DNA of 37,640 bases from a virus. Below, piece after piece: positions 2,382 to 37,282 of this stretch. The stretch lies in the UHGV virus genome UHGV-1707198, one strand, 5' to 3'. The position numbers and the translations under genes are program-made. Positions within the stretch are counted from its first letter, which is position 1. The number at the start of each line of letters is the position of its first letter. The notes beneath the pieces are model-generated. The model had not been told where the DNA came from, ran no database searches, and saw nothing but the letters and a program-made list of their open reading frames with translations.

Positions 2382-2406
2382 GATAAGTAAGTACTAATTT
2401 ACTATC
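2382..2406 (+). promoter_or_regulatory. recurrent intergenic motif, copy upstream of the L-like gene
   Basis: GATAAGTAAGTACTAATTTACTATC, read directly. Confidence 0.4.
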
Positions 2407-2423
2407 ATTGTGGCGCTGACAGG

Positions 2424-3155
2424 ATGTTAGCGCCTACTTATTTCAAGGATGAAACAATGGGAATTAAAGCTGATATTCAGAGCTTATCTCCCTCTGCACT
2501 CATTGAGTTGTTCGTACTGGATATGTCGAACACAACTTCAGGGGGGAAGCTATTCTTCCACGCCGGAACAAACGAACTGATGCAACCGGTCGTCTGGCAA
2601 GGAGTGACATACGAGCCGTGGCCAATCAAAGCATCAGGCTTTGACAAAACTGGCCAGGGAACGTTGCCACGTCCAAAAATTCAGGTATCGAACTTTGCCG
2701 GAACCGTCTCTGCGGAAGTTCAGGCGAACGACGATCTTGTTGGCTGCCGCATTATTCGCAAGATGACGCTGGCTCGCTTCCTCGATGCCGTTAATTTTAA
2801 AGACGGCAACCCAACAGCAGATCCAAACCAACATTTCCCGGATGAAATGTGGTTTATCGAACAGAAAACTCTCGAAACTCATCAGGTTGTCGAGTTTGAA
2901 TTGTCCAGTGTGTTCGATTTGATGGGGGTGCAACTGCCGTATCGTCAGATCATTAAAAACACCTGCCCGTGGAAATACCGAGGGCCAGAATGCGGCTATA
3001 CCGGTCCATATTTCGACAAAAATAACCAGCAGACGTCTATGTCTGGTGCGGATTACTGCACAAAACGTTATGACGCCTGTAATGCGCGTCGGAATTATTT
3101 TGCCGACGGTGTGATCCATTTTGGCGGATTTATTGGAGCTACGCGGTATGGGTAA
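2424..3155 (+). CDS. minor tail protein, lambda gpL-like
   Basis: 243 aa; segment VVWQGVTYEPWPIKASGFDKTGQGTLPRPKIQVSNF and the C-terminal Cys-containing motif (CPWKYRGPECGY) parallel lambda L as recalled. Alternative ATG at 2457 has the better ribosome-binding site. Confidence 0.8.
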   Translation: MLAPTYFKDETMGIKADIQSLSPSALIELFVLDMSNTTSGGKLFFHAGTNELMQPVVWQGVTYEPWPIKASGFDKTGQGTLPRPKIQVSNFAGTVSAEVQANDDLVGCRIIRKMTLARFLDAVNFKDGNPTADPNQHFPDEMWFIEQKTLETHQVVEFELSSVFDLMGVQLPYRQIIKNTCPWKYRGPECGYTGPYFDKNNQQTSMSGADYCTKRYDACNARRNYFADGVIHFGGFIGATRYG

Positions 3156-3945
3156 TAAAGCAATCCCTGAGCTTGGCTCTGACGTTATGCAGCAAATCTA
3201 TCTCTGCGCCATAAATCGCTACCCTAATGAAGCGTGTGGCTTTCTGGTTAGAACTAATGGCGACAAATATCGCTTTATGGAAGCGCGGAATGTTTCGGAG
3301 AACCCGCAGAACACTTTTGTAATGCACGTTGACGACATTATGGCGGCAGAGGATGCGGGTGATGTTATCGCAATCTGGCATTCACATACTGATGAATCAG
3401 CAGAAGCATCTTATGCCGATCGTGCAGGCTGCGAAGCGACGGAAGTTCCGTGGATGATTCTGGCTATTCGCAAGAATGTTGAGGGAGATGCCCCTTTCCA
3501 TTTTAGCGAGATGAATGTGATCACACCTGATGGTTTCGAAATGCCATACCTGGGCAGACCGTATGTATTTGGCGTATTTGATTGCTGGATGTTGTGTCGG
3601 GACTATTTGAAGCGTGAGTTTAACGTCGAACTAAACCCGAACGCACACCTGCATATTCCATCGTGGTACACCGGCGATAACGACATTCTCGATCAGAACT
3701 ACCGAAACGAAGGATTGGTACGGCTTGCGCCCGGAACAGAACCTCAACGTGGGGACGTCTTCTTTATCCAATACGGAAAAATGCCTGACCACTGTGCGGT
3801 TTATATCGGCGATGGAATGATTCTTCATCACCAGATCGACCGCCTTAGTTGTCGTGCTTATTACGGCGGGATGTATCAGAAACATACGACGCATCACTTG
3901 CGTCACAGAGACTTGCTCAAGGGAGATGAGACGTGTCTGAGTTAG
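3148..3945 (+). CDS. tail assembly protein, lambda gpK-like (JAMM/MPN plus NlpC/P60-type domains)
   Basis: Start overlaps the L stop (ATGGGTAATAA). Contains an HSHTD motif consistent with a JAMM metal site and a Cys-containing C-terminal hydrolase-like region; position matches lambda K. Confidence 0.7.
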   Translation: MGNKAIPELGSDVMQQIYLCAINRYPNEACGFLVRTNGDKYRFMEARNVSENPQNTFVMHVDDIMAAEDAGDVIAIWHSHTDESAEASYADRAGCEATEVPWMILAIRKNVEGDAPFHFSEMNVITPDGFEMPYLGRPYVFGVFDCWMLCRDYLKREFNVELNPNAHLHIPSWYTGDNDILDQNYRNEGLVRLAPGTEPQRGDVFFIQYGKMPDHCAVYIGDGMILHHQIDRLSCRAYYGGMYQKHTTHHLRHRDLLKGDETCLS

Positions 3946-4523
3946 TTCATGTGCAGCTTGGCGGCCCTATGGCCAAACATTTTGGCCGCCACTGGCATCT
4001 AAAGGTGCGTAATACAAAACAGGCTCTGGATTTAATTGAGGCCAACAAGCCTGGGTTTAAAGCATGGATGAAGCGCAATATCAAAACCTATGACAGATAC
4101 CACATCCAGATCACCAATAAACAGGGCCACAAGTGGTCTGTGGACGAGAGTGAATATCAGATGATGGGGCAGTCTGACAATATTGCAAAAATCCGCATTA
4201 CCCCTGTTCCGCGAGGAAGTGGTGGATCTGCTTTTGGATGGTTTCAGACGGTTGTTGGAGCAGTATTAATGGTTGCCTCGATATGGGTGCCCGCTCTTGC
4301 GCCTCTCGGTTTGTCACTGATGATGGGCGGTATAGCGCAAATCATATCTCCGCAAGCCACTAACGAAAGTGTGAGGCAGGCGGATAACTCGAACTCTTAT
4401 TACTTTGATGGACCTCAAAACACAACAAACCAGGGGAACCCTGTACAGCTTATCTATGGCGAGGAAATTTTAGTTGGCTCACAGGTCGTGAGTTCTTCTA
4501 TCACCATCGACCAGCTTATGTAA
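3933..4523 (+). CDS. tail assembly protein, lambda gpI-like
   Basis: 196 aa, GTG start overlapping the K stop; hydrophobic Gly-rich C-terminal half; called by position between K and J. Confidence 0.55.
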   Translation: MSELVHVQLGGPMAKHFGRHWHLKVRNTKQALDLIEANKPGFKAWMKRNIKTYDRYHIQITNKQGHKWSVDESEYQMMGQSDNIAKIRITPVPRGSGGSAFGWFQTVVGAVLMVASIWVPALAPLGLSLMMGGIAQIISPQATNESVRQADNSNSYYFDGPQNTTNQGNPVQLIYGEEILVGSQVVSSSITIDQLM

Positions 4524-4540
4524 TCAAGGATTTTTTGGAC

Positions 4541-7500
4541 ATGGAACAGTTCAAGAAGAAAAAATTACCGCTTCTTATTGCCGGTGCTGGTGGCAAGAAA
4601 AGTAAAAGCTCCAGCCGTACCCCGGTTGAAGCTGATGATACTGTCAATTCTCGTGCTATGGCAGCCATCCTCGACCTTCTTGGCGAGGGGGTTATCGGTG
4701 GCCTGGTAAATGGCGCAAAGTCGATCTTCATCGACGATTTACCGATCTTGAATGAAGATGGCTCTTCCAACTTCAGCGGTATTACATGGGATTTTCGTGA
4801 CGGCTCACAAGATCAGACGCCAATGGCTGGTTTTGATTTTGTCGAAACGCCTAAGTCCGTAAATATTCAGCTTAAAAAAACACACGACGTTACGGTTTCA
4901 ATCGATAACGATGAAGCTGATCGCGTTCGTGTCATCATGAAATTCCCCTCTTTACGTAGCGTTGATAAAAGCTCTGGCGATACAAATGGCACTACGGTGA
5001 AGTACAAATTCCAGATCGCCAACGCAGACGCAACATTTTCTGATGTAGTGGCAGAAGGTGAGAAAAGCGTTGATATCACGCTAACGGCAAAGAAAACCGG
5101 CGTGTATTACCGTAGCTATGAGCTGAAACTGCCTAAGCCTGGTCGTGCATACAAGGTTAGGGTGATTCGTCTTACAGATGATAATAGTAGCCAGTACCTC
5201 TACAACGACACATGGGTTGATTCCATCGGTGAGATTGTCGACACGCCAATGAACTACCCTAACTCTGCTCTTGTTGGCTTGAAGGTCAATTCAGAGCAGT
5301 TTGGTAGCACAATGCCTTCCCGTTCGTATTTGGTGCGCGGTATCAAAATCCGAGTACCGTCAAACTACAACGAATACACCAATACTTATGTCGGCGTATG
5401 GGACGGTACTTTTAAGCTGTTGTCTTCTTCAAACCCTGCGTGGATTCTCTACGATTTGCTTACCAATACTCGGTATGGTCTTGGGCAATTTGTGTCGGAA
5501 TCCATGATTGACCTCGGCCAGCTCTACCAGATTGGTCGATATTGTGACGAAGAGGTCGATGATGGCTTTGGGGGTAAAGAGAAACGCTTTGCAATCAATA
5601 CGCAGATCACCAGTCGACAAGACGCATACCGATTAATTCAGGATATTGCCGGTGCATTCCGCGGCATGGTGTTTTGGGCTGGTGGCATGGTTAACATCAT
5701 GCAGGATAGCCCATCAGATCCGGTAATGATGTTTACCAACTCCAACGTCAAAGATGGACTGTTTACCTATAAAGGTTCTGCGCGTAAAGATCGCCCATCC
5801 GTTGCGCTCGTAACCTACAACAACAAGGAGGACGGTTATAAGCAAAACATCGAGTACGTTGAAGATCAGGACGCAATGCGCCGTTATGGTGAGCGTAAAA
5901 CAGAAGTCGTAGCATTTGGATGTACAAGCCGAGGCCAGGCTCACCGAGTTGGTTTGTGGCTTTTGTATACCGCCAGAATGGAGTCGGATGTAATTACATT
6001 TACTGCCGGCTTAGACGCCTCATTTCTGATGCCCGGTGAAACCGTTCTGATTCAGAACAAATATCGTGCAGGTAAACGTAACTCCGGTCGAATTGTGGAG
6101 TTTACCAAAAACAGCATCACTCTCGATGCGCCTGTGTCGTTAGCTAAAAGCGGCAGCTTTATTCGGATATTGAATCAGGAAGGCAAAATCGTTGAACGCG
6201 ATGTTCTTGAAACTGGCGAAAACATAACAAAGGTTACGTTTTCAAAAGCCCTGTCGTCAGCGGAAACGCCTGTTTTGAACGGTGTCTGGACAATTACAGA
6301 ACCAGATCTCGAACCTATGCGCGTTCGCATCGTTAACATCGCGCAGGGGGAAACGCCGGGTAGCTTTGACATCACCGCTGTTGAGAACAATCCGTCTAAA
6401 TATGAGGCAATCGACAATGGTGCAACGCTGATCCCGCAGAATACGACGGTATTGGACCCAACTTACTCCAAGCCATCTAATCTGCAAATCACTGAAGGGA
6501 CTTATCTCTCAAGCCCGGGCAACCTGTCAGTAAAACTGACTGCAACATGGGAAGGAAAATCTCCAGAGTATTGGATCAGTTGGCGACGTTCTGATGAAAA
6601 CAATGTATCGAACTGGCAATCGGCGCGTGTAACCGAAGAGCAATACGAAATCGTTAATGTCGCGGAGAATGGACGCTACGACTTCCAACTGTATGCGGTT
6701 TCATTCAACGGTAAAAAAACAGAGATTATCAGTACCGTTTATCAGGTGTTGGGCACAATGACACCGCCGGATGCCCCAACGTCATTAACGGCCGTTGGAG
6801 ACTATCGTAATGTGATACTGAATTGGGTTAATCCAGATTCGGTAGACCTTGATCACATTAATGTTTACGCATCCCAGACCAACAATCTGGATACGGCGAA
6901 ACTGATCGCAGAGTCTGCAAGCACCACCTTTACACATGCTGGTCTTGGGGATAGCGAAACGTGGTATTACTGGGTTCGAGCATCGAACAAGCGAGGTATG
7001 TTAAGCCCTCCGAACTCAAACTTGGGTACAGAGGCGACAACTCGCGATGTACTGTCGTTCCTGGCTGGCAAAATTACATCTTCCGAGCTTGGTCAGGCTC
7101 TGCTTGAGGACATCAACAGCAAAGCCTCTCAAGAAGCAGTTGACGAGTTAAATGAGCATATCAACCAGAGCGTCGAATCTTTGGAGGGGTCGGTAAACGA
7201 CGTTAAGGAAGATATAGCTGAATTAGATAAGCAGTTCAGCGATAACCTCGCGGGTTTTGAAATAAAATTCAACGAGCGTAGCGATGCTTTGGAGAACGCA
7301 CAAACCGAGCTTAAAGGTGAGGTTTCGGCAACGATCGACAAGGTCAATGAAGCGTTTGAAAAAATTGATGCTACTGATGCTGCAATTGTTGAAATCGAAA
7401 ACACCGTATCTGAACACGATAAAGCTCTCGCTAATACAGTCGAGGCAATAAAGGCTGCAAGAGATGAAGCGGCGGCTCTTATTGCTAAGGAAAGCGAGGC

Positions 7501-9265
7501 TCGTGTTGAAGGCGATGCTGCAAACGCTAAACAACTGGAAGTGTTGCAGTCAACGGTAGAGGAAAGCTCCGCTGCCGTTGAAGAAATGAAAAAGACGGTT
7601 GCAGAGGTCGATCGTGCCAGTGCAGAACTGACTACGAACATTGAGGCGTTAGCCAAAACAAATATTGACCTGGCTCTTCGTCAAGATGAAGACCAGCACA
7701 AGCAGATGGTCAATAACGCGAAGATCGCAACAACACAGAAAACCTTTGCTGATGATATGTCTGCAATGGCCACGAAGGTTGAGGAAATTCGCGTAGAAAT
7801 TGGCGAAGACATTAAGGCCAGTATTCTGGAAGAGTCCACCGCTCGTGCCGATGGCGATGAAGCGTTGGCAAAGCGTGTCACTCAGCTGCAATCTAAGTTT
7901 GAAGGAGATATCAGCGCGGCGATTAGTACAGAGCAGGAGGCTCGCACATCTGCCGATGAAGCTCTGACGACACAGATCACTCAGCTTGAGTCGAAAGTAA
8001 GCAACGATATCGTCGCAGCTATTAAGGAAGAGCAAGAAGCCCGAGCAACGGAAGATTCGGCTCTGGCAAGCCAGATCACCCAACTTCAGGCAAAGGTTGA
8101 TGATGATATTTCTGCTGCAATACGTAGTGAGCAGGAGGCCCGAGCAAGCGGGGACTCTGCGTTAGCCAAACAAATAAACCAGCTTCAGTCAAAGGTTGAC
8201 GGTGATATATCCGCTGCCATCACTCAGGAGCAGGAGGCCAGAGCAAGTGCTGACCAGGCGCTCTCACGAGAAATTAACAGCCTGCGAGCACAAACCGGAA
8301 CTGATATTGCCGCAGCGGTTGCTGTAGAGACAAAGGCAAGGACTGATGCCGATAGTGCATTGTCCACTCAGATTTCGTCTCTTACAGCAAAAGCTAATGA
8401 TCTCGAGGCATCTCTTGCCAGAGAAACAACGGCTCGTGCTGATGGTGATACCGCTTTAACAAAAGAGGTTTCAAGTTTAAAAGCACAGACAGCGAAAGAT
8501 ATTAGTGCGGCCGTTGCAGTTGAAACGCAGGCTCGAACTGATGCTGACTCGGCGTTGTCGTCTCAGATCACCAAGCTGACCTCTCAATACAAAGAGGATA
8601 TTAAAGCGGCTGTAGCAACCGAAACGAAAACGCGTACAGAGCAAGATGCTGCATTGGCGACTCAAATCACAAACTTAGAGTCTCAAACGGCAGCCAACAT
8701 TTCCGCGGCGGTAACAACTGAAACGACAGCGAGAACGCAGGCAGATAATGCTCTGAGTGGGCGAATCGATACTCTGAAAGCAGAGGTGGATGGAAATACC
8801 GCGACAATTCAACAGCAGGCAACAGCTATTGCTGATACCAACAAAAAAGTGTCAACCGCGTGGACGTTGAAAATGGAAACTTCAACGAGCGGAGGGCAGA
8901 AGTATGTTGCTGGTATTGCGCTTGGTATCGACACCACTGGCCTTTCTCAGTTTTTGGTGCAGGCTGACAGGTTTGGTTTGGTCAACTCTGTTAACGGGAA
9001 GATCACCACGCCATTTGTTATCGAAAACAGTATCGCCTATATGAATGGTGCGTATATCAAGGATGGCACAATCACCAATGCAAAAGTAGGCGATCTGCAA
9101 TCTACCAATTTTGTTAGCGGTAGATCTGGATGGCGGTTCGGCAAAAATGGAACGCTTGAGATCAACGGTAATAGCGGGGGTAATGGGCGACTGGTCATAA
9201 ATGGTCAGCGGATTGACGTTTATGACGATAACAACGTCCTACGAGTAAGAATTGGCCTTCTGTAA
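4541..9265 (+). CDS. host specificity / central tail fibre protein, lambda gpJ-like, with extended C-terminal repeat shaft
   Basis: About 1574 aa from the ATG at 4541 (ORF track begins at TTG 4535); AAGGA ribosome-binding site upstream; large N-terminal region typical of J-family tip proteins; follows the I homologue. C-terminal third is tandem repeats. Confidence 0.85.
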   Translation: MEQFKKKKLPLLIAGAGGKKSKSSSRTPVEADDTVNSRAMAAILDLLGEGVIGGLVNGAKSIFIDDLPILNEDGSSNFSGITWDFRDGSQDQTPMAGFDFVETPKSVNIQLKKTHDVTVSIDNDEADRVRVIMKFPSLRSVDKSSGDTNGTTVKYKFQIANADATFSDVVAEGEKSVDITLTAKKTGVYYRSYELKLPKPGRAYKVRVIRLTDDNSSQYLYNDTWVDSIGEIVDTPMNYPNSALVGLKVNSEQFGSTMPSRSYLVRGIKIRVPSNYNEYTNTYVGVWDGTFKLLSSSNPAWILYDLLTNTRYGLGQFVSESMIDLGQLYQIGRYCDEEVDDGFGGKEKRFAINTQITSRQDAYRLIQDIAGAFRGMVFWAGGMVNIMQDSPSDPVMMFTNSNVKDGLFTYKGSARKDRPSVALVTYNNKEDGYKQNIEYVEDQDAMRRYGERKTEVVAFGCTSRGQAHRVGLWLLYTARMESDVITFTAGLDASFLMPGETVLIQNKYRAGKRNSGRIVEFTKNSITLDAPVSLAKSGSFIRILNQEGKIVERDVLETGENITKVTFSKALSSAETPVLNGVWTITEPDLEPMRVRIVNIAQGETPGSFDITAVENNPSKYEAIDNGATLIPQNTTVLDPTYSKPSNLQITEGTYLSSPGNLSVKLTATWEGKSPEYWISWRRSDENNVSNWQSARVTEEQYEIVNVAENGRYDFQLYAVSFNGKKTEIISTVYQVLGTMTPPDAPTSLTAVGDYRNVILNWVNPDSVDLDHINVYASQTNNLDTAKLIAESASTTFTHAGLGDSETWYYWVRASNKRGMLSPPNSNLGTEATTRDVLSFLAGKITSSELGQALLEDINSKASQEAVDELNEHINQSVESLEGSVNDVKEDIAELDKQFSDNLAGFEIKFNERSDALENAQTELKGEVSATIDKVNEAFEKIDATDAAIVEIENTVSEHDKALANTVEAIKAARDEAAALIAKESEARVEGDAANAKQLEVLQSTVEESSAAVEEMKKTVAEVDRASAELTTNIEALAKTNIDLALRQDEDQHKQMVNNAKIATTQKTFADDMSAMATKVEEIRVEIGEDIKASILEESTARADGDEALAKRVTQLQSKFEGDISAAISTEQEARTSADEALTTQITQLESKVSNDIVAAIKEEQEARATEDSALASQITQLQAKVDDDISAAIRSEQEARASGDSALAKQINQLQSKVDGDISAAITQEQEARASADQALSREINSLRAQTGTDIAAAVAVETKARTDADSALSTQISSLTAKANDLEASLARETTARADGDTALTKEVSSLKAQTAKDISAAVAVETQARTDADSALSSQITKLTSQYKEDIKAAVATETKTRTEQDAALATQITNLESQTAANISAAVTTETTARTQADNALSGRIDTLKAEVDGNTATIQQQATAIADTNKKVSTAWTLKMETSTSGGQKYVAGIALGIDTTGLSQFLVQADRFGLVNSVNGKITTPFVIENSIAYMNGAYIKDGTITNAKVGDLQSTNFVSGRSGWRFGKNGTLEINGNSGGNGRLVINGQRIDVYDDNNVLRVRIGLL
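7823..8800 (+). repeat. about ten tandem 99-bp (33-aa) repeats inside the J-like gene
   Basis: Repeating protein unit of the form ISAAIxxEQEARAxxDxALxxQITQLQSKVxxD, read directly from the translation; heptad-like, suggesting a coiled-coil shaft. Confidence 0.75.
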
Positions 9266-9293
9266 TGTAGAAAAAAATATTTATATCGGTAAA

Positions 9294-9315
9294 AATAAGT
9301 AGGTACATACTTAAT
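9294..9315 (+). promoter_or_regulatory. recurrent motif, copy upstream of the tail fibre gene
   Basis: AATAAGTA-ggtaca-TACTTAAT, near-perfect dyad. Confidence 0.45.
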
Positions 9316-9357
9316 GGTGGGCAAGGATAGCCCACCAAATCAAGGAGCATATTCAAC

Positions 9358-14589: not shown

Positions 14590-14820
14590 ATGAAAAGATT
14601 ATTTCTAACAATAGCTGTTGTTCTCTCTCTTACTGGCTGCCAGAAATTGCCGACACCTATATGTTATGGTGAGGCTATCATTGGTGGACAGGAGACAGTC
14701 ATACCCATATATGCTGTTAAAAAAGTGAACGACTATACCTTATACAAAGCGGGTAGCATCTATAACTGGCGATGGGTTGGAGTAGGTGCTTTCTCATCAG
14801 TCCGTTGCAATGCTGAATGA
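14590..14820 (+). CDS. small lipoprotein (signal peptide plus lipobox LTGC)
   Basis: N-terminus MKRLFLTIAVVLSLTGC has a basic n-region, hydrophobic core and a lipobox cysteine; 76 aa. Confidence 0.55.
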   Translation: MKRLFLTIAVVLSLTGCQKLPTPICYGEAIIGGQETVIPIYAVKKVNDYTLYKAGSIYNWRWVGVGAFSSVRCNAE

Positions 14821-14839
14821 TAGGTAAGCACACACCTAC
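14818..14839 (+). promoter_or_regulatory. recurrent motif, copy upstream of the holin-like gene
   Basis: TGATAGGTAAGCACACACCTAC; shares TGATAGGTAAGCACA with the copy at 26935. Confidence 0.4.
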
Positions 14840-14889
14840 AACAAAAGGGTGAAATGTGATATAAATCCGCCATCCCGATTTGACTTTTC

Positions 14890-17728: not shown

Positions 17729-17755
17729 ACCCGCTACGGCGGGTTTGTTGTTATT
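17727..17755 (+). terminator. rho-independent terminator
   Basis: AAACCCGC-tacg-GCGGGTTT hairpin followed by GTTGTTATT. Confidence 0.55.
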
Positions 17756-17760
17756 AAGCC

Positions 17761-17780
17761 CACCTATGTACCTATCATTA
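17761..17780 (-). promoter_or_regulatory. recurrent motif, inverted orientation
   Basis: Reverse complement reads TAATGATAGGTACATAGGTG; lies just after the terminator at 17727..17755. Confidence 0.3.
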
Positions 17781-20797: not shown

Positions 20798-20819
20798 GAT
20801 AAGTAAGTAACTACCTACC
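20798..20819 (+). promoter_or_regulatory. recurrent motif, proximal copy upstream of gene 20831
   Basis: GATAAGTA-agtaac-TACCTACC. Confidence 0.4.
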
Positions 20820-26064: not shown

Positions 26065-26085
26065 GATAAGTAGATACATACTTAG
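26065..26085 (+). promoter_or_regulatory. recurrent motif, copy upstream of gene 26127
   Basis: GATAAGTA-gataca-TACTTAG. Confidence 0.45.
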
Positions 26086-26126
26086 TTTTTTGTAAGAATA
26101 CTTTCATCTGTTAGCTAGGAGTTGGT

Positions 26127-26903: not shown

Positions 26904-26934
26904 GCTCTCTGTGTGTCGTTTTTTACGCAAGTAA

Positions 26935-26949
26935 TGATAGGTAAGCACA
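26935..26949 (+). promoter_or_regulatory. recurrent motif, copy upstream of gene 26971
   Basis: TGATAGGTAAGCACA. Confidence 0.4.
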
Positions 26950-26970
26950 AGATTATTTCTGGCGGTAATT

Positions 26971-29285: not shown

Positions 29286-29571
29286 CAATTTAACTTCTTG
29301 GGACTGGTGGTTGGCCACCTATTTCTTAGCGGCCGGAGTCGCATTCGCCTTTTACGTAGGTCAGTTAGTCGTAAAACTGTTGCTGATTAAATTTGCTAGT
29401 CATAAACGTATCGATGATGGTCTGTGGCGTCTTGGCACCCTGGTGGAAACTCGCTACGGGCAACTTAAGGAGAACGAAACCATTACTATCCAGGCGAAAC
29501 GATTCACTGCCACCATCACAAGAACACCTAGTCGTAGAGTGGCCTTGATCAAAAAAGTCACAACCGAATAA
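29281..29571 (+). CDS. small membrane protein
   Basis: 96 aa; ATG overlaps the upstream stop (ATGA); N-terminal transmembrane helix WWLATYFLAAGVAFAFYVG. Confidence 0.4.
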   Translation: MSNLTSWDWWLATYFLAAGVAFAFYVGQLVVKLLLIKFASHKRIDDGLWRLGTLVETRYGQLKENETITIQAKRFTATITRTPSRRVALIKKVTTE

Positions 29572-29580
29572 AAATACAAT

Positions 29581-29602
29581 GATAAGTATTTACTTACTTA
29601 TC
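29581..29602 (+). promoter_or_regulatory. recurrent motif, dyad copy at the head of the non-coding leader before the tRNAs
   Basis: GATAAGTA-tttact-TACTTATC; the 8-bp arms are exact reverse complements. Confidence 0.5.
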
Positions 29603-30349
29603 TTTTGTGTATAAGATGACTTTGTTTTCGTTGAGACGCGACTGTTTGAACTTAAATACAAGTGCAAACGAAGAAGTCTATCTGGCAGTAGCCTAATAAG
29701 CCAAACACCAGCGAGGTCAGTTTCCAGCCTCGTTACCGAAATGGGACACACTGAGCGAGTGTGATTGCAGAACGCAGGAGGGAACATGAATGTTCCCTCC
29801 GATGAAGTAACAGAATGGGCGGTTGGTATATTTTCAACTCCATATGACTCCCGGATTCTTAGCCACTGACCGCCCATCCTGTTACGTCATTTTGTTCAAT
29901 TATGTCGTTTATACTGGGTTAAAAAGCGGCGACGTAGCCCGGCTGGTATGGTTAGCCAGCACACAACGTTGAGGCCATTACATTTTTATCAATTCTAAGG
30001 TTCTATTCACAGAGATACCGGCGAGCGTTGATATGTAACATGTTGGGCAAACATTCAATCGGAGTAGTGGCCTCAACGTTGTGAAGACGGGATTGTTGTG
30101 TAGGTTTAACCACTGTTGCCATTGGTGCCTGTTTTCACAACAAATGATTCCATACATCACATTGTATAAATTACAAAGTAGGTGCTGTCCTCAGAAACAT
30201 CATCTACTTAAAGATTTTGCCTTCTACTATTGAGCGAAGTCGAAAGCGTCTGGCACTAACGAAAAGTGCAAGTAGCGGTGCGTTTCCTGGCAGAAACTAA
30301 ACCGTCGCGATTGGCACTGTTGAGTAATAAATACTGGCAGTGCTGAATT

Positions 30350-30424
30350 GATGGTGTAGCTCAGCGGTAGAGCAGTTGGCTGTTAACCAACTGGTCGGTG
30401 GTTCGAATCCACCCACCATCGCCA
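30350..30424 (+). tRNA. tRNA-Asn (anticodon GTT)
   Basis: Cloverleaf folded by hand: acceptor GATGGTG/CACCATC, D-arm GCTC/GAGC, anticodon stem GTTGG/CCAAC with loop CTGTTAA, T-arm GGTGG-TTCGAAT-CCACC, encoded CCA. Confidence 0.85.
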
Positions 30425-30429
30425 ATTTA

Positions 30430-30516
30430 GGGGAGTTAGTCCGTAGAGGTAGCGGTGTAGACTGTAAATCTACTGTCATGGCGACTCGGGTGGTTCGACT
30501 CCATCACTCCCCACCA
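30430..30516 (+). tRNA. tRNA-Tyr (anticodon GTA), long variable arm
   Basis: Acceptor GGGGAGT/ACTCCCC, anticodon stem GTAGA/TCTAC with loop CTGTAAA, long variable arm, encoded CCA. Confidence 0.8.
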
Positions 30517-30520
30517 AATT

Positions 30521-30596
30521 GCCGGTTTAGCTCAGTTGGTAGAGCAGTCGTTTTGTAAGCGAATGGCCAGCGGTTCAAGTCCGTTAACCGGCACCA
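30521..30596 (+). tRNA. tRNA-Thr (anticodon TGT), probable
   Basis: Acceptor GCCGGTT/AACCGGC, D-arm GCTC/GAGC, T-arm AGCGG-TTCAAGT-CCGTT, anticodon loop TTTGTAA; the anticodon stem has one G-A mismatch and one G-U pair, so identity is less certain. Confidence 0.65.
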
Positions 30597-30604
30597 ACAC
30601 AACA

Positions 30605-30680
30605 GGTAAGAGCATTGGGCGAATCGGCGATACTGACCCACAAGGCCGTAAATCGATAGAGTCAGACCAGTGCTCTTACC
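30605..30680 (+). ncRNA. 76-nt hairpin element in the tRNA spacer (not a canonical tRNA)
   Basis: 10-bp terminal stem GGTAAGAGCA/TGCTCTTACC enclosing 56 nt; a hand-fold as a tRNA fails (no D-arm or T-arm pairing). Related stems occur at 30681..30739 and 30811..30912. Confidence 0.3.
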
Positions 30681-30916
30681 GTTGTGAGGAAGTGCAGCTC
30701 TTTGAAGCAACCAGAAGATAAGCATCTGGCTTCACAACACAACGATAATATCATTACGGTTAATCGTCGTTCATGTGCACAATGACTGGTCGAAAGGTAG
30801 TGATCTTACCATTGTGATGAATGCACAGGCTGATGTGCCGCAACTACAGTAGTGCGCGCTTTGCGGGGCTTGCTACAACCCTGTGTCGGAGTTCAGCACC
30901 GACCATCACAATAGCT

Positions 30917-31003
30917 GGAGAGTAGGGAGCATGGTGCTCAAGCGGTCTTGAAAACCGTCCCATTGTGCAAACGATGATGGTTCGATTCCATTACTCTCCG
31001 CCA
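30917..31003 (+). tRNA. tRNA-Ser (anticodon TGA), long variable arm
   Basis: Acceptor GGAGAGT/ACTCTCC, anticodon stem-loop GCGGT-CTTGAAA-ACCGT closely resembling E. coli tRNA-Ser(UGA) as recalled, T-loop TTCGATT, encoded CCA. Confidence 0.75.
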
Positions 31004-31157
31004 GACACAGCGTTGAGCGGTTTGGCCTTTTAATCAACTCGATTAAGACTCCGCTAACATAAACCAGACCGCTCAACGCTGTGATAGATAATTACGGCAG
31101 ACGTTCTTAACCATAGCTTGCTAACATCCTAGCAACACTTTTTTCAGCGCAAAATTC

Positions 31158-31180
31158 AAAGGGGCTTCGGCCCCTTTTTT
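31158..31180. terminator. bidirectional rho-independent terminator
   Basis: AAAGGGGC-ttcg-GCCCCTTTTTT, with A-run and T-run on either side; sits between the tRNA cluster and the convergent minus-strand gene. Confidence 0.55.
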
Positions 31181-31195
31181 GTTGAACAGTGCAAT

Positions 31196-32458
31196 TTACT
31201 TTACATAGTCGCCCAGTTTTAATATTTCGCGCTTATATTCTTTAACCATGCTACTGGATTCAGTATAAATTCGATTTAAAAGATTATCGCTATCTTTATT
31301 CTCATTTATCTTAATGAGTGATAATTTAAATTCATAGTCATCAAATGCCACAATCAAATGGTGGCCTGGGATTATATCTTCGTCACTCTTGAAGTATATA
31401 TCTTCAAGTATGTAATCTAGTTGATTAGATTTTCTTTTCTCGATGTAATCTTCAGCCATAGCTATTACATCATTCCTGTCATTTAACCTGTTTTTTTCGG
31501 AAGGCACATCTTCGTAATGTTGCACGATTGAACAACCAATAAGGCGTGGGATGTAAACGTCAAAATGAGTAACTCTATCATTCGCGGTTTTAAGTAGTTC
31601 CTCAAAGTAGTTTCTTACATGTAAAGGCAACTTCTCAAAGTAATCATTAATTATAGGAGAACAAGGAGTTTTATAATTCATAAGAACCGACGGTACGAGC
31701 TTTGGGTCTCGAAACATCCAGTCCCTTTTAACGTCCGATGGAACATAATAACTTTTAATGATATTATCAAAATAATTTATCATTCGAGATTTGAATATTT
31801 TGTTGAATCTAAGGTTTATGAATGCATCCAGATAAGGCATATCTGAATAAGCATCATCAAAAAATATTTCATCATTGAAAAAATCATATTTATTTAATAA
31901 ACAACACAGTTTTCCCGAATTAATATGTTCACAATAATCGATCTTTAATCCAAAGATAGCAATGATCAACTTCATCTGAGGTGGGATTTTGAAAATTAAT
32001 TGTGACACATACGCTCTTTTTTCCTTTAGACATTCCCCATCAATATAAAATGAACTATCCACATACTCAAAAATATTAATAATATGCTTCACATACTGTA
32101 TTACCTCATGCTGTTTTACCAATGGGTAATATAGTCTATGTAACTCATCGCTGTTTAAATTAATTTTGCGTTTATCGATAATTTGTTTTGCAAGAAGACA
32201 TAGCTCATCATGTTGATTTAATAAGGAATCAAACCATTGTTTAAATGCACTCTTTCGCATTTCGAACAATGATTCTGTTGTTAATTGAAGGGCTGAAAAA
32301 GCTGCTTTTGCACTTTTTCTCGCTTCGTAGGCATTCCATGCTGTTGCTATAAAAGCAAATGCTGTAGCCAATGTTCCAACAATTTGACCATTTAAAACAA
32401 CCCAATCCCAAAAAATCACGGTGAGCAGTAGTATAATAATGAAAATTAAAAAAGGCAT
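31196..32458 (-). CDS. AT-rich membrane-anchored protein of unknown function
   Basis: 420 aa; N-terminal two hydrophobic helices (FLIFIIILLLTVIFWDWVV and VGTLATAFAFIATAW), then a large Asn/Lys/Tyr/Phe-rich domain. Opposite strand to nearly everything else; very low GC. Confidence 0.5.
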   Translation of the reverse strand: MPFLIFIIILLLTVIFWDWVVLNGQIVGTLATAFAFIATAWNAYEARKSAKAAFSALQLTTESLFEMRKSAFKQWFDSLLNQHDELCLLAKQIIDKRKINLNSDELHRLYYPLVKQHEVIQYVKHIINIFEYVDSSFYIDGECLKEKRAYVSQLIFKIPPQMKLIIAIFGLKIDYCEHINSGKLCCLLNKYDFFNDEIFFDDAYSDMPYLDAFINLRFNKIFKSRMINYFDNIIKSYYVPSDVKRDWMFRDPKLVPSVLMNYKTPCSPIINDYFEKLPLHVRNYFEELLKTANDRVTHFDVYIPRLIGCSIVQHYEDVPSEKNRLNDRNDVIAMAEDYIEKRKSNQLDYILEDIYFKSDEDIIPGHHLIVAFDDYEFKLSLIKINENKDSDNLLNRIYTESSSMVKEYKREILKLGDYVK

Positions 32459-32567
32459 GTATGTATTTCACTCTACTAACTATAAAATATTAGGGTAATG
32501 TTAACCAAACAATGCCTTAATTAATAGATTGATCGAGGCTTTAATAACTTTATAATGCAGACTGCAA

Positions 32568-32589
32568 AGATAAGTATGCACATACCTAT
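32568..32589 (+). promoter_or_regulatory. recurrent motif, copy upstream of the glutaredoxin-like gene
   Basis: GATAAGTA-tgcaca-TACCTATC, one mismatch from a perfect dyad. Confidence 0.45.
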
Positions 32590-32632
32590 CTTCTTTGTGA
32601 GTAAAGTTGCATATCAATTCTATGAGGTAACA

Positions 32633-32878
32633 ATGACGATCACTATCTACGGACGAGATAACTGCTCATACTGCAAACGTGCGGTCGAGCTAGCGAAGCA
32701 ACTAAAGGGACATGGCTACGGTGATTATGAGTACATCGACATCACCACTGCCGGTATCGACAAGGAAAAACTAAGTGAAATTGTTGGTAAACCGGTAGAG
32801 ACTATCCCCCAGGTGCTGATCGAAGGCCAGCCGATTGGCGGATACACAGAACTGGCTGCATACGTCAGCACCCTCTGA
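32633..32878 (+). CDS. glutaredoxin-like protein (NrdH/Grx-type)
   Basis: About 81 aa from the ATG at 32633 (GAGGT ribosome-binding site); ITIYGRDNCSYCKRA contains a CxxC active-site motif after a beta-strand, and the C-terminal TIPQVLIEGQPIGGY is typical of the glutaredoxin fold. Confidence 0.6.
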   Translation: MTITIYGRDNCSYCKRAVELAKQLKGHGYGDYEYIDITTAGIDKEKLSEIVGKPVETIPQVLIEGQPIGGYTELAAYVSTL

Positions 32879-33088
32879 TTTTAACGGCTCACAGGAGCCG
32901 TTTTTATTCCCACCAAACTCACTCCCATTTCCCTTAAAATTCAAAAAACAACGTCAAAATGATTCCATACCTACTATGTATGGAATCATTGCTGAAAATG
33001 AGTTACTTTTACTCTTGATCCTATAAGAATCTATGCCTAATATACTGTTTACTTATACAGTGCATCGGCGTAACTCGGTGATTGTCAT

Positions 33089-34192
33089 ATGAAAAATAGC
33101 TTTGACAGAGCACGCGCTGCGGAGAACACCTCAAAAGAGGCGATAGAGTATCTCGAAAGAGCATCTCAAATGCAGGCCGTTATGATCTCCCAGGTCAGCA
33201 ATGACATGAGATTCTCGGACGCATTCATGTTATTCACTCGCTTATCTCTGCTGATAACCAGACGTCGGCCAGAGATCGCTGTTCATTGTATTTTGATACA
33301 TGTTTTGCCGCACATTGCCGATGTAAAAGTAAGTGACATTAATAGGTTCATGGTGAACCAACTGGTCAACCCACTAATACTGGATGGCAAAATTGTTATG
33401 GGCCGCCGCGTTTTCTCTCTGATGAAGCAGTTCCTTAGCTGGTGCGCCTTCCAGGGGATGATAGACGTGTCACCGTTAAACGATATGTCACTTAACAAAG
33501 TTGCCGGTGGCGCAAAGCCCACACCTCGCGAGCGGAAGCTGACCGACGCAGAGGTATGGGTGTTCTGGAATATATGGGACTACTTCAATGTGTGTGCTGG
33601 TACAAAATGGGCGGCCAGGCTATGTCTTGTATCCGCAAGACGACCTGACGAAGTACTGCGGGCTAAAAAAAGTGAGTTCAATCTTAAGCGTGGGGTTTGG
33701 AATCAAGGCAAGAGGAACAAATCTGCCCGTGAGCATTCTCTGCCTTTAAGCTCATTAATGCGCACTTGTATTGAAGAGTTGTTCGAATATGGTAAAGACA
33801 GCCAGTGGCTCGTGCCTTCGAATAAAAAAATCGGGAAAGACCTTCCTATGTCTAAAGTGGCAATAGCCCAGGCATTACGTCGTATTCTGGAACGACCAGA
33901 ACTGATGGAGCTTGAGCCATTTACACCCCGAGATTTGCGCCGTACTGCGCGTAGTTACTTCCCAGCATTAGGCATAAGCCAGGAGGTATCACGTAAAATC
34001 ATGAACCACAGTCTTGAGGGGATAGATCGGGTCTACGACCGGCACGATTATATGGACGAGATGCGAGACGCCTTAGAAAGTTTCTCGACGTACATCGCAT
34101 CAATCGTAGAGCAACCGGATTTAGACGAAATTGACCACAAATTTAAGGGAGATCGTCTATCAACAGAGCTTATTCGTGTAAATTTTTCATAG
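33089..34192 (+). CDS. tyrosine recombinase / integrase (P4-like catalytic domain)
   Basis: C-terminal motifs RDLRRTARSY ... IMNHS ... RVYDRHDYMDEMR match the R-H-R-Y catalytic signature and the Y-x-R-x-D-Y-x-[DE]-E-R tail of P4-type integrases. N-terminal region is atypical and the ribosome-binding site is weak. Confidence 0.65.
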   Translation: MKNSFDRARAAENTSKEAIEYLERASQMQAVMISQVSNDMRFSDAFMLFTRLSLLITRRRPEIAVHCILIHVLPHIADVKVSDINRFMVNQLVNPLILDGKIVMGRRVFSLMKQFLSWCAFQGMIDVSPLNDMSLNKVAGGAKPTPRERKLTDAEVWVFWNIWDYFNVCAGTKWAARLCLVSARRPDEVLRAKKSEFNLKRGVWNQGKRNKSAREHSLPLSSLMRTCIEELFEYGKDSQWLVPSNKKIGKDLPMSKVAIAQALRRILERPELMELEPFTPRDLRRTARSYFPALGISQEVSRKIMNHSLEGIDRVYDRHDYMDEMRDALESFSTYIASIVEQPDLDEIDHKFKGDRLSTELIRVNFS

Positions 34193-34573
34193 AGACTTTA
34201 TGGCCTCAACAACCTTTTGTGATGCGCCTTTCTCTTTACCGAATCGCTCGTTATATGCAGCAAGAACCTGTTTTTCGTCCTCGTTAAGAGGAGCAGTGCC
34301 TTCTTTGTATAAAAATGCTGCGAGTTCGGGTTGGCGTTCTTCCAGCACCATCATCATAAGACGACTTGGCTCAATGCCCAGTGCCAGCGCCAGCGGACGA
34401 ACCTTATCGATAGGCAAAGGAATTTTGCCGCTTTTAATTAAAGAAAGGTTGTTGGCGTTTTTATACCCAATTGTTTTGGCTATCTGGGCCTGGCTCATAG
34501 GTGAGGATTCAATCAACCCTGCGATAAAAGCAGCGTAGCGACTTTCTATAAATTCAATCTTGTTATCAGACAT
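34187..34573 (-). CDS. HTH-type transcriptional regulator (XRE-like)
   Basis: 128 aa; helix-turn-helix-like segment SQAQIAKTIGYKNANNLSLIKSG; AAAGG ribosome-binding site on the minus strand; convergent with the integrase gene and divergent from the downstream + strand genes. Confidence 0.55.
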   Translation of the reverse strand: MSDNKIEFIESRYAAFIAGLIESSPMSQAQIAKTIGYKNANNLSLIKSGKIPLPIDKVRPLALALGIEPSRLMMMVLEERQPELAAFLYKEGTAPLNEDEKQVLAAYNERFGKEKGASQKVVEAIKSL

Positions 34574-34824
34574 GGTTACAACCTTTGCGCGTTCAATTCT
34601 CTCTGGTAAGTGCTTACCGATATTACATCAAAGGTTAGGGTTGTAAAGCTATTATCATTTTTTTCGATAGGCACTTAAAAGACCGGTTAAAGGCCATTGC
34701 ACGGAGAAAAATTAGCCCAAAACAGGTAAGAAAATCAACTTGCATATGATATGAATGTATTCAGTATTGATACAAATTTTAGTAGTATTCCTTACCATAG
34801 TATAAGTTAGAATGGATTGATTGA

Positions 34825-35037
34825 ATGAACACCACTATTTCCAGCCTAATCGCTCTTGAGATCGGACACGTACAGAAATTAGCTGATGAGTGTGTAGCTG
34901 ACATCCTCACCGATCTACCGAATGAGCAGATTCAGGTTGGTGTGAATGACACAACTGGCTTTATATTCGAACTTAACAACAAACGCTTCACGCTTCTCAA
35001 TACCGGCTCCTGGTCTTTAGCCGTCAGAATCTGTTAA
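34825..35037 (+). CDS. hypothetical protein
   Basis: 70-aa ORF followed by a CTGCGCGAA...TTCGCGCAG hairpin at about 35050..35085. Confidence 0.3.
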   Translation: MNTTISSLIALEIGHVQKLADECVADILTDLPNEQIQVGVNDTTGFIFELNNKRFTLLNTGSWSLAVRIC

Positions 35038-35135
35038 CCCCTCTTCTCCCTGCGCGAATGGCTTAGTTCCCTGTTCGCGCAGTGCTACATTAAACACACT
35101 AGTAAATAATTTGTTTTCATAACAAAGGATTAGCC

Positions 35136-37244
35136 ATGTCTAAAAAACGTTCCATCAAAGAGGTTCAGGACTTCCGTGACAGTGTAAAACGAGTAGTCGC
35201 TCTCCTTTCAGGTAAAAACATCCCTGTTGCAGAACGAGGGGACGACGCTTATGTACGCTATAACGATGATGGAGAGCCAATTCTCGTAAACATCCCATCA
35301 ATCCCGGATAACGCAACACCGGCATTGATGAATGCTGTGCGCGGATTTCTCGATCATGAGGTTGCTCACATTTTGTTTACCGATATTCGTGTGTCCAACA
35401 AAATGAGAGAAAAAGGACGCGTTCCTTCCTGGTCGCTATGGAATGCCTTAGAAGACGTGTTCATCGAGCGAAAAATGGGTCAGGTCTTTAACGGAACAAG
35501 ACGTAATCTGATGGCAACTCAGCGCCTTATAATCGAAAAAGTCTTTAAACCAAAGGCTTCAGAGGCTATTGCTTATTGTGGCAAAGATCAGCGCGCGCTT
35601 TTTCTAAACTTCTTTCTCTGTCCGGTTGTAAGAGCCTGGGATGGCCAAGCACCGTTCGTAGATTTCATGGATGAATATTGGCCTGTCATTGAGAAACCAA
35701 TTTCATTATTAAAAGAACATGGTATCGATGTGGCCGTGCGTAACATGTCTTGCACCGAGGATTGTGTAAAGGTGGCTGCGACCATAGCTAAGATCCTCAA
35801 AGACACTGAAAGTGAAAGCAAAGGTAAGGAGTCAGCTCCGGGAAAAACTTCCGATCCTTCAGACGCTGACCAGACGGATGCCTCTGGAGAAAACAATGAA
35901 GACAACGAAGATCATGAGACACCCTCAGCGTTAGATAATCACAAATCTATCAAATCAGAATCACACAGTAAGCACAAACATGATAATAACGACAGTGATG
36001 ATTCAGATAATTCTGAATCATCAGAAACAATATTCGATGATACAGAAAATGATAAAGTGGTATCAGATTCTGGTGCTTCTGATAACGCGGCGTCAGAATC
36101 ATTTACCACTGACCACGAAAAAAGAAAATCGACAGAAGACGGCTCTTCAGACATTCCAACTCCGTCAAAAATGAGTCTGGAAGAGGCTTTAGAGGAGTTG
36201 GATAGCATGGAAGATGAAGTCGGAGGCATGACAGAAGATGCGCTATCCGAAACGATTAAAAGCGAGTTAACAGAAAGCTCGAAAAGCGAATACAGGCCAT
36301 ACAATCGCTCATACGACTTCATCGGCTCGATTGATCAGGCAGAAGCCCATATCAAACGGCTTATTAAAACATTCTCCGATATTGATTTAGGTGGATATCC
36401 AATCAGCCGTTATCGCATCGTTCCTGAAGGCAACCAACTCTTCGACAAATATATTGAAAAGCACCTTTCGTCAGGTGTTTCGTCGACGCTGGCAAAAGAC
36501 CTGGAACGTGCAATAGCAAGCAGAAACAGAGTTCAGTTTATACCTGGCCAGCGTCGGGGGCGCATTCATGGTTCAAGTATCTACAGATTAACAATGAATG
36601 ATGATCGCGTGTTTCGTAAAAAAGAAGAATCTAAAGCCGTTAACGCCTGTGTTCAACAAGTGATTGATTTATCGGGTTCAATGAGTGGCGAAACGATAAA
36701 ACTAGCTCTTGCAAGTGCATATACCATCGCCGATGCACTTGATCGAATAAATGTTCCCAACATTATCACCGGCTTCACTACATTTGGCAGTCATATGGCA
36801 GCAGGAGAACTTAAGGCTATCAAATATGAGTTCTCTCGCTTTGAATCTTTAATGCTACCTATCATCAAAAATTGGAATGAAAAAGCAAATTCTCGCGAAG
36901 TTCGCTCACGTATGGGGTGCGTAGGCTACACATTCCCACTTCTTAATAACGTGGATGGTGAAAGCATAGCCAGCCTTGCATCGTTATTTTCCGGTCGCTT
37001 GGAGGACAGGAAGATCATGCTTGTTCTGAGCGATGGCGCGCCGTGGGCTGTTGGGAGAGGTTTTGACGCTCATTTGCGTTCGGTTGCGAAGCAAATTGAA
37101 ACGCAGACTGACATTGATTTGATGGCAATTGGCATCATGACTGACGCACCGGAGAGATTTTACTCAAATCATGCCCTGGTAACGAGCGTTGATAGTCTTG
37201 GTTCATCTGTAGTTACTGAACTATCTCGTATCATTTTGAAGTGA
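35136..37244 (+). CDS. vWA-domain protein, CobT-like
   Basis: 702 aa; C-terminal region has a MIDAS-like DLSGSMSG motif (DxSxS) of von Willebrand factor A domains; long acidic Ser/Asp/Glu-rich low-complexity stretch at residues about 225-350; N-terminal HEVAH (HExxH). This architecture matches CobT-type proteins as I recall them. Confidence 0.5.
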   Translation: MSKKRSIKEVQDFRDSVKRVVALLSGKNIPVAERGDDAYVRYNDDGEPILVNIPSIPDNATPALMNAVRGFLDHEVAHILFTDIRVSNKMREKGRVPSWSLWNALEDVFIERKMGQVFNGTRRNLMATQRLIIEKVFKPKASEAIAYCGKDQRALFLNFFLCPVVRAWDGQAPFVDFMDEYWPVIEKPISLLKEHGIDVAVRNMSCTEDCVKVAATIAKILKDTESESKGKESAPGKTSDPSDADQTDASGENNEDNEDHETPSALDNHKSIKSESHSKHKHDNNDSDDSDNSESSETIFDDTENDKVVSDSGASDNAASESFTTDHEKRKSTEDGSSDIPTPSKMSLEEALEELDSMEDEVGGMTEDALSETIKSELTESSKSEYRPYNRSYDFIGSIDQAEAHIKRLIKTFSDIDLGGYPISRYRIVPEGNQLFDKYIEKHLSSGVSSTLAKDLERAIASRNRVQFIPGQRRGRIHGSSIYRLTMNDDRVFRKKEESKAVNACVQQVIDLSGSMSGETIKLALASAYTIADALDRINVPNIITGFTTFGSHMAAGELKAIKYEFSRFESLMLPIIKNWNEKANSREVRSRMGCVGYTFPLLNNVDGESIASLASLFSGRLEDRKIMLVLSDGAPWAVGRGFDAHLRSVAKQIETQTDIDLMAIGIMTDAPERFYSNHALVTSVDSLGSSVVTELSRIILK

Positions 37245-37260
37245 ATAAAACAGCCTTAAT

Positions 37261-37282
37261 GATAAGTAACCACTTACGATAG
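37261..37282 (+). promoter_or_regulatory. recurrent motif, copy upstream of gene 37340
   Basis: GATAAGTAACCACTTACGATAG. Confidence 0.4.

Follow-up and report, generated by a model that had tools for sequence, protein, structure and literature searches.

A 37,640-nucleotide (nt) stretch of the virus genome UHGV-1707198, referred to here in its entirety as the window, carries the same short palindrome in one intergenic region after another, which raises the question of what this motif, named E1, does and which protein reads it. E1 is a real motif that is conserved across a family of SSU5-like phage-plasmids, of which the window is a part, and its probable, though by no means assured, function would be that of a multi-copy operator for a phage-encoded symmetric (dimeric) DNA-binding repressor.

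SSU5-like phage-plasmids are very common in clinical isolates of Escherichia coli, Klebsiella and Enterobacter, can carry resistance genes, and include pHCM2 of Salmonella Typhi as well as much of Yersinia pestis pMT1; their capsid gene occurs in ~950 plasmid records. Their silence as plasmids and their switch to lytic growth are essentially unstudied, and no description of the E1 motif, its regulatory circuit or promoters in SSU5-like phage-plasmids was found in the searchable literature. The sequence of E1, together with its ~30 mapped positions, the few candidate binders and a co-evolved variant from Acinetobacter, renders this lysis-lysogeny circuit directly testable, and in addition provides a simple marker to find and classify SSU5-like elements.

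The window comprises tail genes, a tail fibre, lysis genes, parA, replication genes, a tRNA cluster, glutaredoxin and an integrase/repressor region. Its identity is ~97% with Escherichia phage CMS-2020a and with Cyrano, which resides in E. coli LF82 as a plasmid prophage, but falls to ~80% for Salmonella phage SSU5 and ~74% for Klebsiella phage pJN2-26. Of these, Cyrano, SSU5 and pJN2-26 were compared as complete genomes along with the Acinetobacter plasmid pAF-673, the capsid protein of which is 59% identical to that of the SSU5-like elements. Non-coding DNA makes up ~10% of the window and 12-13% of the complete relatives.

Sequence, copy number and enrichment of E1

The E1 consensus is a single unbroken palindrome of 22-28 base pairs (bp), the halves (AAT)GATAAGTAAGT and ACTTACTTATC(ATT) adjoining each other directly. 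Its information is limited to positions -3 to +25, is mirror-symmetric and extends through the centre, which had mistakenly been described as a 6-bp spacer within an "8-N6-8" dyad in an earlier note on this DNA. The pattern given there, GATAAGTA-N6-TACTTATC, matches the window six times with at most three mismatches, against 0.15 matches expected, and none of 100 shuffles reached six. Moreover, a position matrix built from 10 window sites retrieved every claimed copy when scanned over the window, which bears out the recurrence of the motif in at least ten intergenic regions. Altogether, the window holds ten full or partial copies of E1 and one 14-bp core (Table 1).

With at most six mismatches to the 22-mer, E1 occurs 6 times in the window, 21 times each in Cyrano and SSU5, and 25 times in pJN2-26, compared with 0.1-0.15 times in simulated sequence. 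With at most seven mismatches the window yields 13 matches, 10 of which lie outside gene models, while two are seven-mismatch matches at chance level. The remaining one, at 32569, becomes the eleventh outside genes upon correction of the glutaredoxin start, which is probably 32633 (preceded by the ribosome-binding site GAGGTAA) and not 32555, so that this motif falls into the glutaredoxin leader. At the same threshold, 31 of 33 matches in Cyrano and 32 of 34 in SSU5 are located outside genes (binomial P ~1e-25, with orthologous sites counted in each genome). Thus, the frequency of E1 is far above that in shuffled sequence and more than 90% of its copies in the complete relatives are intergenic, in keeping with what the earlier note had proposed to check. 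An exact-pattern scan of viral contigs found the E1 core confined to contigs of SSU5-like size, size being the sole criterion. Genome-wide, the set amounts to ~30 intergenic sites distributed over structural, lysis, replication and nucleotide-metabolism genes throughout the family, and the suggestion of a phage-wide set is therefore upheld.

At individual sites the earlier picture has to be modified in several respects. The sites assigned to 20831, 26127, 26971 and 37340 exist, but these numbers denote the downstream start codons, and the motifs themselves lie 33-79 bp further upstream. Likewise, the copy described as inverted at 17761 is present, but as a right-half site. The supposed second copy before 20831 belongs to another element, the large hairpin E2 at 20659-20715, and the two TGATAGGTAAGCACA copies, formerly considered a possible promoter-like variant, are plain A-to-G variants with degenerate right arms that constitute no separate class. 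Conversely, the 14-bp core GGTAAGTGCTTACC in the promoter region of the helix-turn-helix (HTH) gene had been missed; this core and its flank are also found in pJN2-26, and a half site is found in pAF-673.

Two further sites deserve comment. The copy at 2382 is kept in Cyrano, SSU5 and pJN2-26 and is followed by a hairpin at 2412-2434; tail gene L probably starts at ATG 2457 and not at 2424, judged by a ribosome-binding site (AAGGA) and conservation in the relatives. Downstream of the copy at 14819, where homology with the relatives starts at the motif, a conserved extended -10-like sequence, TGATATAAA (14857-14865), is placed about one helical turn further away than the other boxes.

Table 1. 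E1 copies in the window, promoter-like elements associated with E1, and the HTH gene
Feature	Position	Strand	Context
E1 copy	2382..2403	+	Between tail genes M and L; left arm and centre good, right arm degenerate
E1 copy	9294..9315	+	Between J and the tail-fibre gene; hairpin 9316-9336 directly after
E1 copy (GATAGG variant)	14819..14840	+	Upstream of holin gene
Half site, right arm TACCTATCATT alone	17755..17776		After terminator, upstream of parA
E1 copy	20798..20819	+	End 11 nt before ATG 20831; ribosome-binding site adjoining
E1 copy	26065..26086	+	At -41 to -20 of a conserved extended -10 promoter (TGTAAGAAT, 26091-26099) for gene 26127
E1 copy (GATAGG variant, degenerate right arm)	26936..26957	+	13 nt upstream of GTG 26971
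E1 copy, best (2 mismatches to 22-mer)	29581..29602	+	Upstream of tRNA region; conserved -10-like TATAAGAT at 29610-29617
E1 copy	32569..32590	+	At ~+6 to +27 of a sigma-70-type promoter (TTGATC 32529-32534, TATAAT 32551-32556); glutaredoxin leader (start 32633)
14-bp E1 core GGTAAGTGCTTACC	34605..34618		Over predicted transcription start of HTH repressor gene (- strand); -10 TAATAT is the complement of 34621-34626
E1 copy	37261..37282	+	At -41 to -20 of a conserved extended -10 promoter (TGGTATATT, 37287-37295) for gene 37340
CI/XRE-like HTH protein, 128 amino acids	34187..34573	-	Matches to Pfam HTH_19 and a PHROG transcriptional regulator
TTGAAA-17-TATCAT/TATGAT, conserved	Inside portal gene 3' end; upstream of CYRAN_56		E1 forms spacer and -10
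TTTACA-17-TAGTAT, conserved in three genomes	Upstream of CYRAN_60		-10 lies in E1 centre
Extended -10 boxes TGTAAGAAT, TGGTATATT, TATAAGAT	5-8 nt downstream of E1 (26065, 37261, 29581)		E1 covers ~-41 to -20

Conservation and co-evolution of the motif

In the three enterobacterial genomes, E1 is retained in orthologous intergenic regions even where the upstream sequence is unrelated. The Acinetobacter plasmid pAF-673 contains a variant palindrome, TATTAGTAAGCGCTTACTAATA, which shares 8 of 11 half-site positions with E1 and is present in 30 copies, 25 of them intergenic. Several of these copies are syntenic with E1, at the TerL/portal junction, at both flanks of the capsid gene and in the divergent helicase/parB-like operon region, and by these signs the variant is clearly homologous to, and co-evolved with, E1. 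Since the motif changes with the phage lineage while its places stay syntenic, a host factor is an unlikely binder; we infer that the protein is phage-encoded and that its specificity changed together with the site. Moreover, the sites of Fur, LexA, CRP and others do not appear to fit E1 in spacing and sequence. In a third lineage, represented by the Pectobacterium plasmid Drgb1 and examined in part, no SSU5-type motif was seen, but a few GTAYGTAT-ACAA-ATACATAC dyads are present.

E1 as a site in duplex DNA

Changes in the E1 arms across 62 sites comprise 226 one-sided, pair-breaking events versus 43 compensatory ones, the latter number being that expected from shuffled arms, and at the variable pair 5/18 the A-C mismatches (23) exceed the G-U pairs (10). 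As the arms are equally conserved and do not co-vary, E1 is best understood as a DNA site at which a symmetric protein reads both arms of the duplex, and not as an RNA hairpin. In addition, the right and left arms are equal in their likeness to a -10 element when viewed in gene orientation in all four genomes, which means that E1 is not itself a directional promoter; a reading of the right arm as a directional -10 was rejected for the same reason. This mirror-symmetric conservation, devoid of a directional -10 signal in either arm, agrees with the earlier proposal of a site for a symmetric DNA-binding protein rather than a sigma-70 promoter.

A role at the RNA level would have E1 act as a hairpin in polycistronic transcripts, be it as processing site, stabiliser, antitermination signal or translational operator. 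The palindrome does lie between genes in transcribed DNA, in many cases close to a ribosome-binding site or beside a GC-rich hairpin: strong hairpins of this kind follow about a quarter of the E1 copies within 0-10 nt (window 2412-2434 and 9316-9336; Cyrano 9039-9053, 5470-5492 and 67894-67915). However, the compensatory changes that a structured RNA should display are missing, and so is a stable fold: E1 copies folded as RNA are weak and uneven (-2.7 to -8.3 kcal/mol), some being no better than shuffles. The Rfam search returned tRNAs as the only matches and none for E1, and the notion of a fixed module of dyad and subsequent hairpin was abandoned because the association with downstream versus upstream hairpins is not significant (P = 0.29). 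Hence, the RNA reading, which we rate as extremely improbable, is already largely refuted. As for the hairpins themselves, the one that follows the capsid gene and the one ahead of nrdA are evident intrinsic terminators, while the one before the tail-tube gene differs in sequence between genomes with its pairing kept.

Promoter positions and expression in the lysogen

The case for an operator builds on the positions of E1 relative to promoter-like sequences, deduced from sequence and conservation, in conjunction with the statistics, symmetry and family-wide conservation of the sites; that a protein binds, that it represses and which protein it is are the interpretive steps. Relative to identifiable -10 elements, E1 ranges from ~-42 to +27 and includes the start site of the repressor gene. 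Such varying placement over core promoter elements corresponds to the layout of repressor operators, while an activator needs fixed geometry and could not operate when placed over the start site or at +6 to +27. Among 92 sites, extended -10 boxes at a spacing of 5-8 nt lie downstream in 10 instances and at the mirror-image position in 2, orthologous sites not being independent in this count. At Cyrano 59376-59422, the TTTACA-17-TAGTAT promoter would start transcription a few nt before the annotated ATG of CYRAN_60, which implies that the mRNA has little or no leader, or else that the start codon is misplaced.

According to this model, a repressor bound at E1 over the -35, the spacer and -10, the start or the early transcribed region would block binding or escape of RNA polymerase. 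By means of ~30 dispersed copies, the plasmid prophage could silence its lytic genes, divided as they are into many small transcription units, through a single protein, which might in turn regulate its own gene through the core site at its own start. Copies not accompanied by a recognisable promoter (at TerL/portal, M/L and after the capsid gene) may then serve as auxiliary, looping or roadblock sites.

A supplementary table (PMC9928086) lists the RNA level of each Cyrano gene in LF82, and the lytic genes in it are at background in lysogeny broth (LB). The HTH gene CYRAN_45 reaches ~10 times background in the LF82 lysogen, while CYRAN_56 and CYRAN_60-62, situated just after E1-overlapped promoters, do not exceed the detection floor in LB but gain 5-6 log2 after 6 h in macrophages; CYRAN_46, the cro-like neighbour of the repressor, rises by 6.4 log2 at the same time (PMC9928086). 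CYRAN_34, the orthologue of gene 26127, which follows a weaker E1 copy and an extended -10 box, exceeds the gene upstream of it by 2.4-3 log2 in every sample (PMC9928086). This pattern fits a partial derepression of E1-guarded promoters. Across other E1 gaps RNA falls (PMC9928086), but terminator hairpins are located there. An initial interpretation of the 64-fold drop in RNA from CYRAN_30 to CYRAN_31 as a roadblock was withdrawn, since the E2 hairpin of -26.6 kcal/mol lies between these genes.

Several observations weigh against a repressor operator, or against the assignment of its protein. Roughly half of the E1 copies have no recognisable promoter nearby, and several are positioned directly upstream of terminator-like hairpins or 9-17 nt from a start codon. 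The RNA sequencing is bulk data from uninduced or stressed lysogens and noisy, with levels rising across some E1 gaps and falling across others, and the E1 counts from related genomes include orthologous sites and are thus non-independent. With regard to the protein, the HTH repressor is only 56% identical between Cyrano and pJN2-26 despite their common E1 consensus, and SSU5 lacks it yet features 21 good E1 copies. Furthermore, both E1 and a second motif, E3, are dispersed and operator-like, so the genome appears to comprise at least two such regulons, which bears on the question of which repressor belongs to which site.

Candidate binding proteins

The most likely candidate binder of E1 is the CI/XRE-like HTH protein encoded at 34187-34573, which the earlier note had suggested and which is plausible on account of the core site over its own predicted start, its expression in the lysogen and its near-universal presence in plasmid-state relatives. 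The gene is present in 864 plasmid records, which are distributed among genera much as those with the capsid gene are. In its AlphaFold model the protein bears a weak resemblance to XRE, lambda cI and C-proteins, and the predicted recognition helix has an N-x-N-x-x-S pattern that Cyrano shares with pJN2-26 and pAF-673. SSU5 is the only SSU5-like genome examined that is devoid of the HTH gene, and it has no integrase either: around 42525-42761 of SSU5 (corresponding to window 33089-35037), integrase, HTH repressor and cro-like gene are all absent, while nearly all plasmid-state relatives possess them. This loss may explain the lytic behaviour of SSU5, which was presumably isolated as a lytic phage; repressor loss would fit such an origin, and the operators retained in SSU5 would then be no evidence against the HTH protein as binder.

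A rival candidate is CYRAN_123, which tracks E1 at least as well as the HTH protein and hence counts against the latter, although it is silent in lysogens (PMC9928086). This protein of 88 amino acids is encoded just before the terminase genes, outside the window, is 84-89% conserved in the enterobacterial relatives and 33% identical in pAF-673, and is predicted to form a MarR/PadR-like winged helix (predicted local distance difference test, pLDDT, of 82; Foldseek template modelling, TM, scores of 0.7-0.78 to MepR and MarR). A homologue search with CYRAN_123 returned close relatives only, none of them annotated.

Other proteins appear unlikely. In the ribbon-helix-helix protein CYRAN_117, the beta-strand residues inferred to face the DNA differ among genomes with the same motif. 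The FljA-like repressor, CYRAN_37 and a Cra-like protein are absent from pAF-673, and their distribution matches E3 instead. pAF-673 itself encodes an annotated sigma-70 family sigma factor between a MoxR-like ATPase and dnaE (93891-94556, - strand), for which BLAST detected no counterpart in SSU5-like genomes and NCBIfam gave no match at E <= 0.01; as it has no homologue in the SSU5-like genomes, it is not needed for E1.

Alternative explanations

Activation rather than repression would make E1 the recognition element of activator-dependent middle or late promoters, in which it replaces the -35 and an early phage protein such as CYRAN_123 turns on ~30 promoters. Sigma-70-like -35/-10 pairs are indeed rarer in the window than in shuffled sequence (14 versus 29.7 expected in 1-20000; 27 versus 40.5 in 18000-37640), RNA rises across some E1 gaps, and E1 and complete E3-type promoters never share an intergenic gap. 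The closest parallel is given by the Lpa-dependent late promoters of P1, in which a short palindrome, AAGT(N)ACTT, is located beside a -10-like hexamer without a -35. According to P1 annotation and sequence, the E1 centre AAGTACTT resembles the P1 -22 box AAGT(T/G)ACTT, the outer arm TATCAT/TATTAT resembles a -10, and CYRAN_123, with its predicted MarR/PadR-like winged helix, occupies the same position as lpa in P1. The E1 centre has 8 bp and no central base and is followed by ACT and TATCAT; the P1 box is a 9-bp palindrome near -22, and the loop of the E2 hairpin carries AAGTNACTT. E1 as a whole, however, is much longer, fully symmetric, non-directional and found at repressor-type positions. 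Instead of a -10 at fixed spacing on the downstream side only, both arms are equally -10-like in the four genomes and symmetrically conserved, and the distance between E1 and -10 varies as described above. In addition, several copies are placed immediately before terminators or adjoin the ribosome-binding site, and E1 occurs ahead of late genes as well as of early-type (replication) ones. A tblastn search yielded no Lpa homologue (best E = 0.98), the PHROG Lpa family was matched by P1 Lpa alone, and BLASTP of Lpa against CYRAN_123 gave E = 8.7. On balance, an activator-dependent promoter element is unlikely. KorB of RK2 exemplifies another possibility, namely that E1 is an architectural or partition-type site of the two phage ParB-like proteins for silencing, DNA organisation or packaging, comparable to the KorB OB sites or to the dispersed centromeres of N15. 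OB operators are palindromes scattered around the plasmid, their distance from promoters differs from one to the next, and one of them is located at the operon of the regulator itself. E1, too, is a palindrome with many dispersed copies at varying promoter distances, one of which immediately precedes the parB-like operon in the enterobacterial lineage as well as in that from Acinetobacter, and ParB-like proteins are conserved in all E1-bearing lineages. On the other hand, only an N-terminal ParB/Srx domain (a ParB_N/TIGR00180 match below cut-off) and no clear HTH domain was detected in these proteins. A role in transcription control is also favoured by the overlap of E1 with promoter elements and by its marked preference for intergenic DNA. 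The ParB-like genes are moreover silent in the plasmid state: CYRAN_119 and CYRAN_120 are at background in all LB samples (PMC9928086), and proteins whose genes are at background cannot be silencing in the plasmid state. A partition-type role is thus quite improbable.

When related phage-plasmids are aligned, the point at which their homology sets in is often an E1 copy, while the cargo ahead of it is unrelated (window 14760-14820 and 26000-26065), and E1 copies thus coincide with mosaic boundaries. Such a pattern could arise if E1 lacked a regulatory role and constituted a short conserved linker for recombination between mosaic modules, or a small selfish repeat; the boundaries at the holin and 26127 regions and the copy at 32569, which is at the edge of a window-specific insertion, are in line with it. 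Nevertheless, syntenic positions and co-evolved sequence across lineages with capsids only 59% identical, as well as symmetric base-by-base conservation and promoter overlap, are unexpected of a recombination linker, and boundary effects may be a by-product of any conserved 22-mer, which renders this explanation very improbable. Finally, repression might be one half of a two-state switch, in which E1 would be read by the CI-like HTH repressor in the plasmid state, with ~30 sites silencing the 100-kb genome and the promoter-less ones acting as roadblocks or looping anchors, and subsequently, during lytic growth, by the winged-helix protein CYRAN_123 or the ParB-like pair, which would time middle and late expression. 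The set of sites and proteins would then have co-evolved as a unit from Enterobacteria to Acinetobacter; this extended scheme is rather unlikely in its entirety.

Comparison with known systems

Taking the simpler repressor operator as a basis, E1 would function like known dispersed prophage operators, but differs from each compared family in the defining sequence and protein. The C1 operators of P1 are similar in that a plasmid prophage has its lytic genes in many units, each guarded by a copy of one operator, with variable promoter positions and an operator at the repressor's own gene (P1 annotation). E1 shares the many dispersed copies (21-25 per genome at up to six mismatches, 10-11 in the window) as well as the variable, repressor-type overlap with promoters including that of the repressor gene, these promoters again being predicted from sequence. 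By contrast, C1 binds asymmetric 17-mers, ATTGCTCTAATAAATTT, whereas E1 is a 22-28 bp palindrome of unrelated sequence with a higher copy number (~30) and a small XRE/CI-like HTH protein as candidate repressor, and a tblastn search of the four genomes for a P1 C1 homologue gave no match better than E = 5.7.

The stoperators of cluster A mycobacteriophages (sites of L5 gp71) comprise ~24-30 repressor-type sites in short intergenic regions among early and late genes of a temperate phage, also in promoter-less places. The ~30 E1 sites in short intergenic regions of early and late operons resemble this arrangement. Stoperators, however, are asymmetric 13-bp sequences in one orientation to transcription, while E1 is symmetric and shows no oriented flank signal; regarding the stoperator-type roadblock, the sole large drop in RNA that was examined, from CYRAN_30 to 31, is attributable to a strong hairpin and not to E1.

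Further repeated elements and the tRNA cluster

Two other elements recur in these genomes. E2 is a conserved hairpin of ~57 nt (GACCTGYTTCTGTATAT...ATATACGGAAGCAGGTC; z = -6.5) that carries the palindrome AAGTNACTT in its loop. It is present in three copies per genome (in Cyrano near 31160, 78090 and 108345; likewise in SSU5 and pJN2-26), positioned at the ends of gene blocks, where it follows the parA operon and the dam gene and precedes the terminase genes. In the LF82 lysogen RNA falls 64-fold across it. E2 probably acts as a strong terminator or as an insulator.

The other element, E3, is likewise a dispersed palindrome, GAAAACAAnTTGTTT, with 17-20 copies per SSU5-like genome, found in the window at 17827-17841, 21581-21595 and 35102-35118. 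Most copies are located ~8-24 nt downstream of extended -10 promoters (TGnGATAAT, followed by ACACCAACAAGA), just before ribosome-binding sites, and none occupies the same intergenic gap as E1. pAF-673 has neither E3 nor the FljA-like protein ("repressor of phase-1 flagellin"; Pfam E = 1e-80); FljA is known as a repressor that binds mRNA leaders.

Downstream of the best E1 copy, four tRNA genes (Asn, Tyr, Thr and Ser) are clustered at 30350-31003 of the window. Parts of this cluster match the tRNA region of P1/P7/D6-type phages at 82-90% identity, and the cluster region is expressed in the LF82 lysogen.

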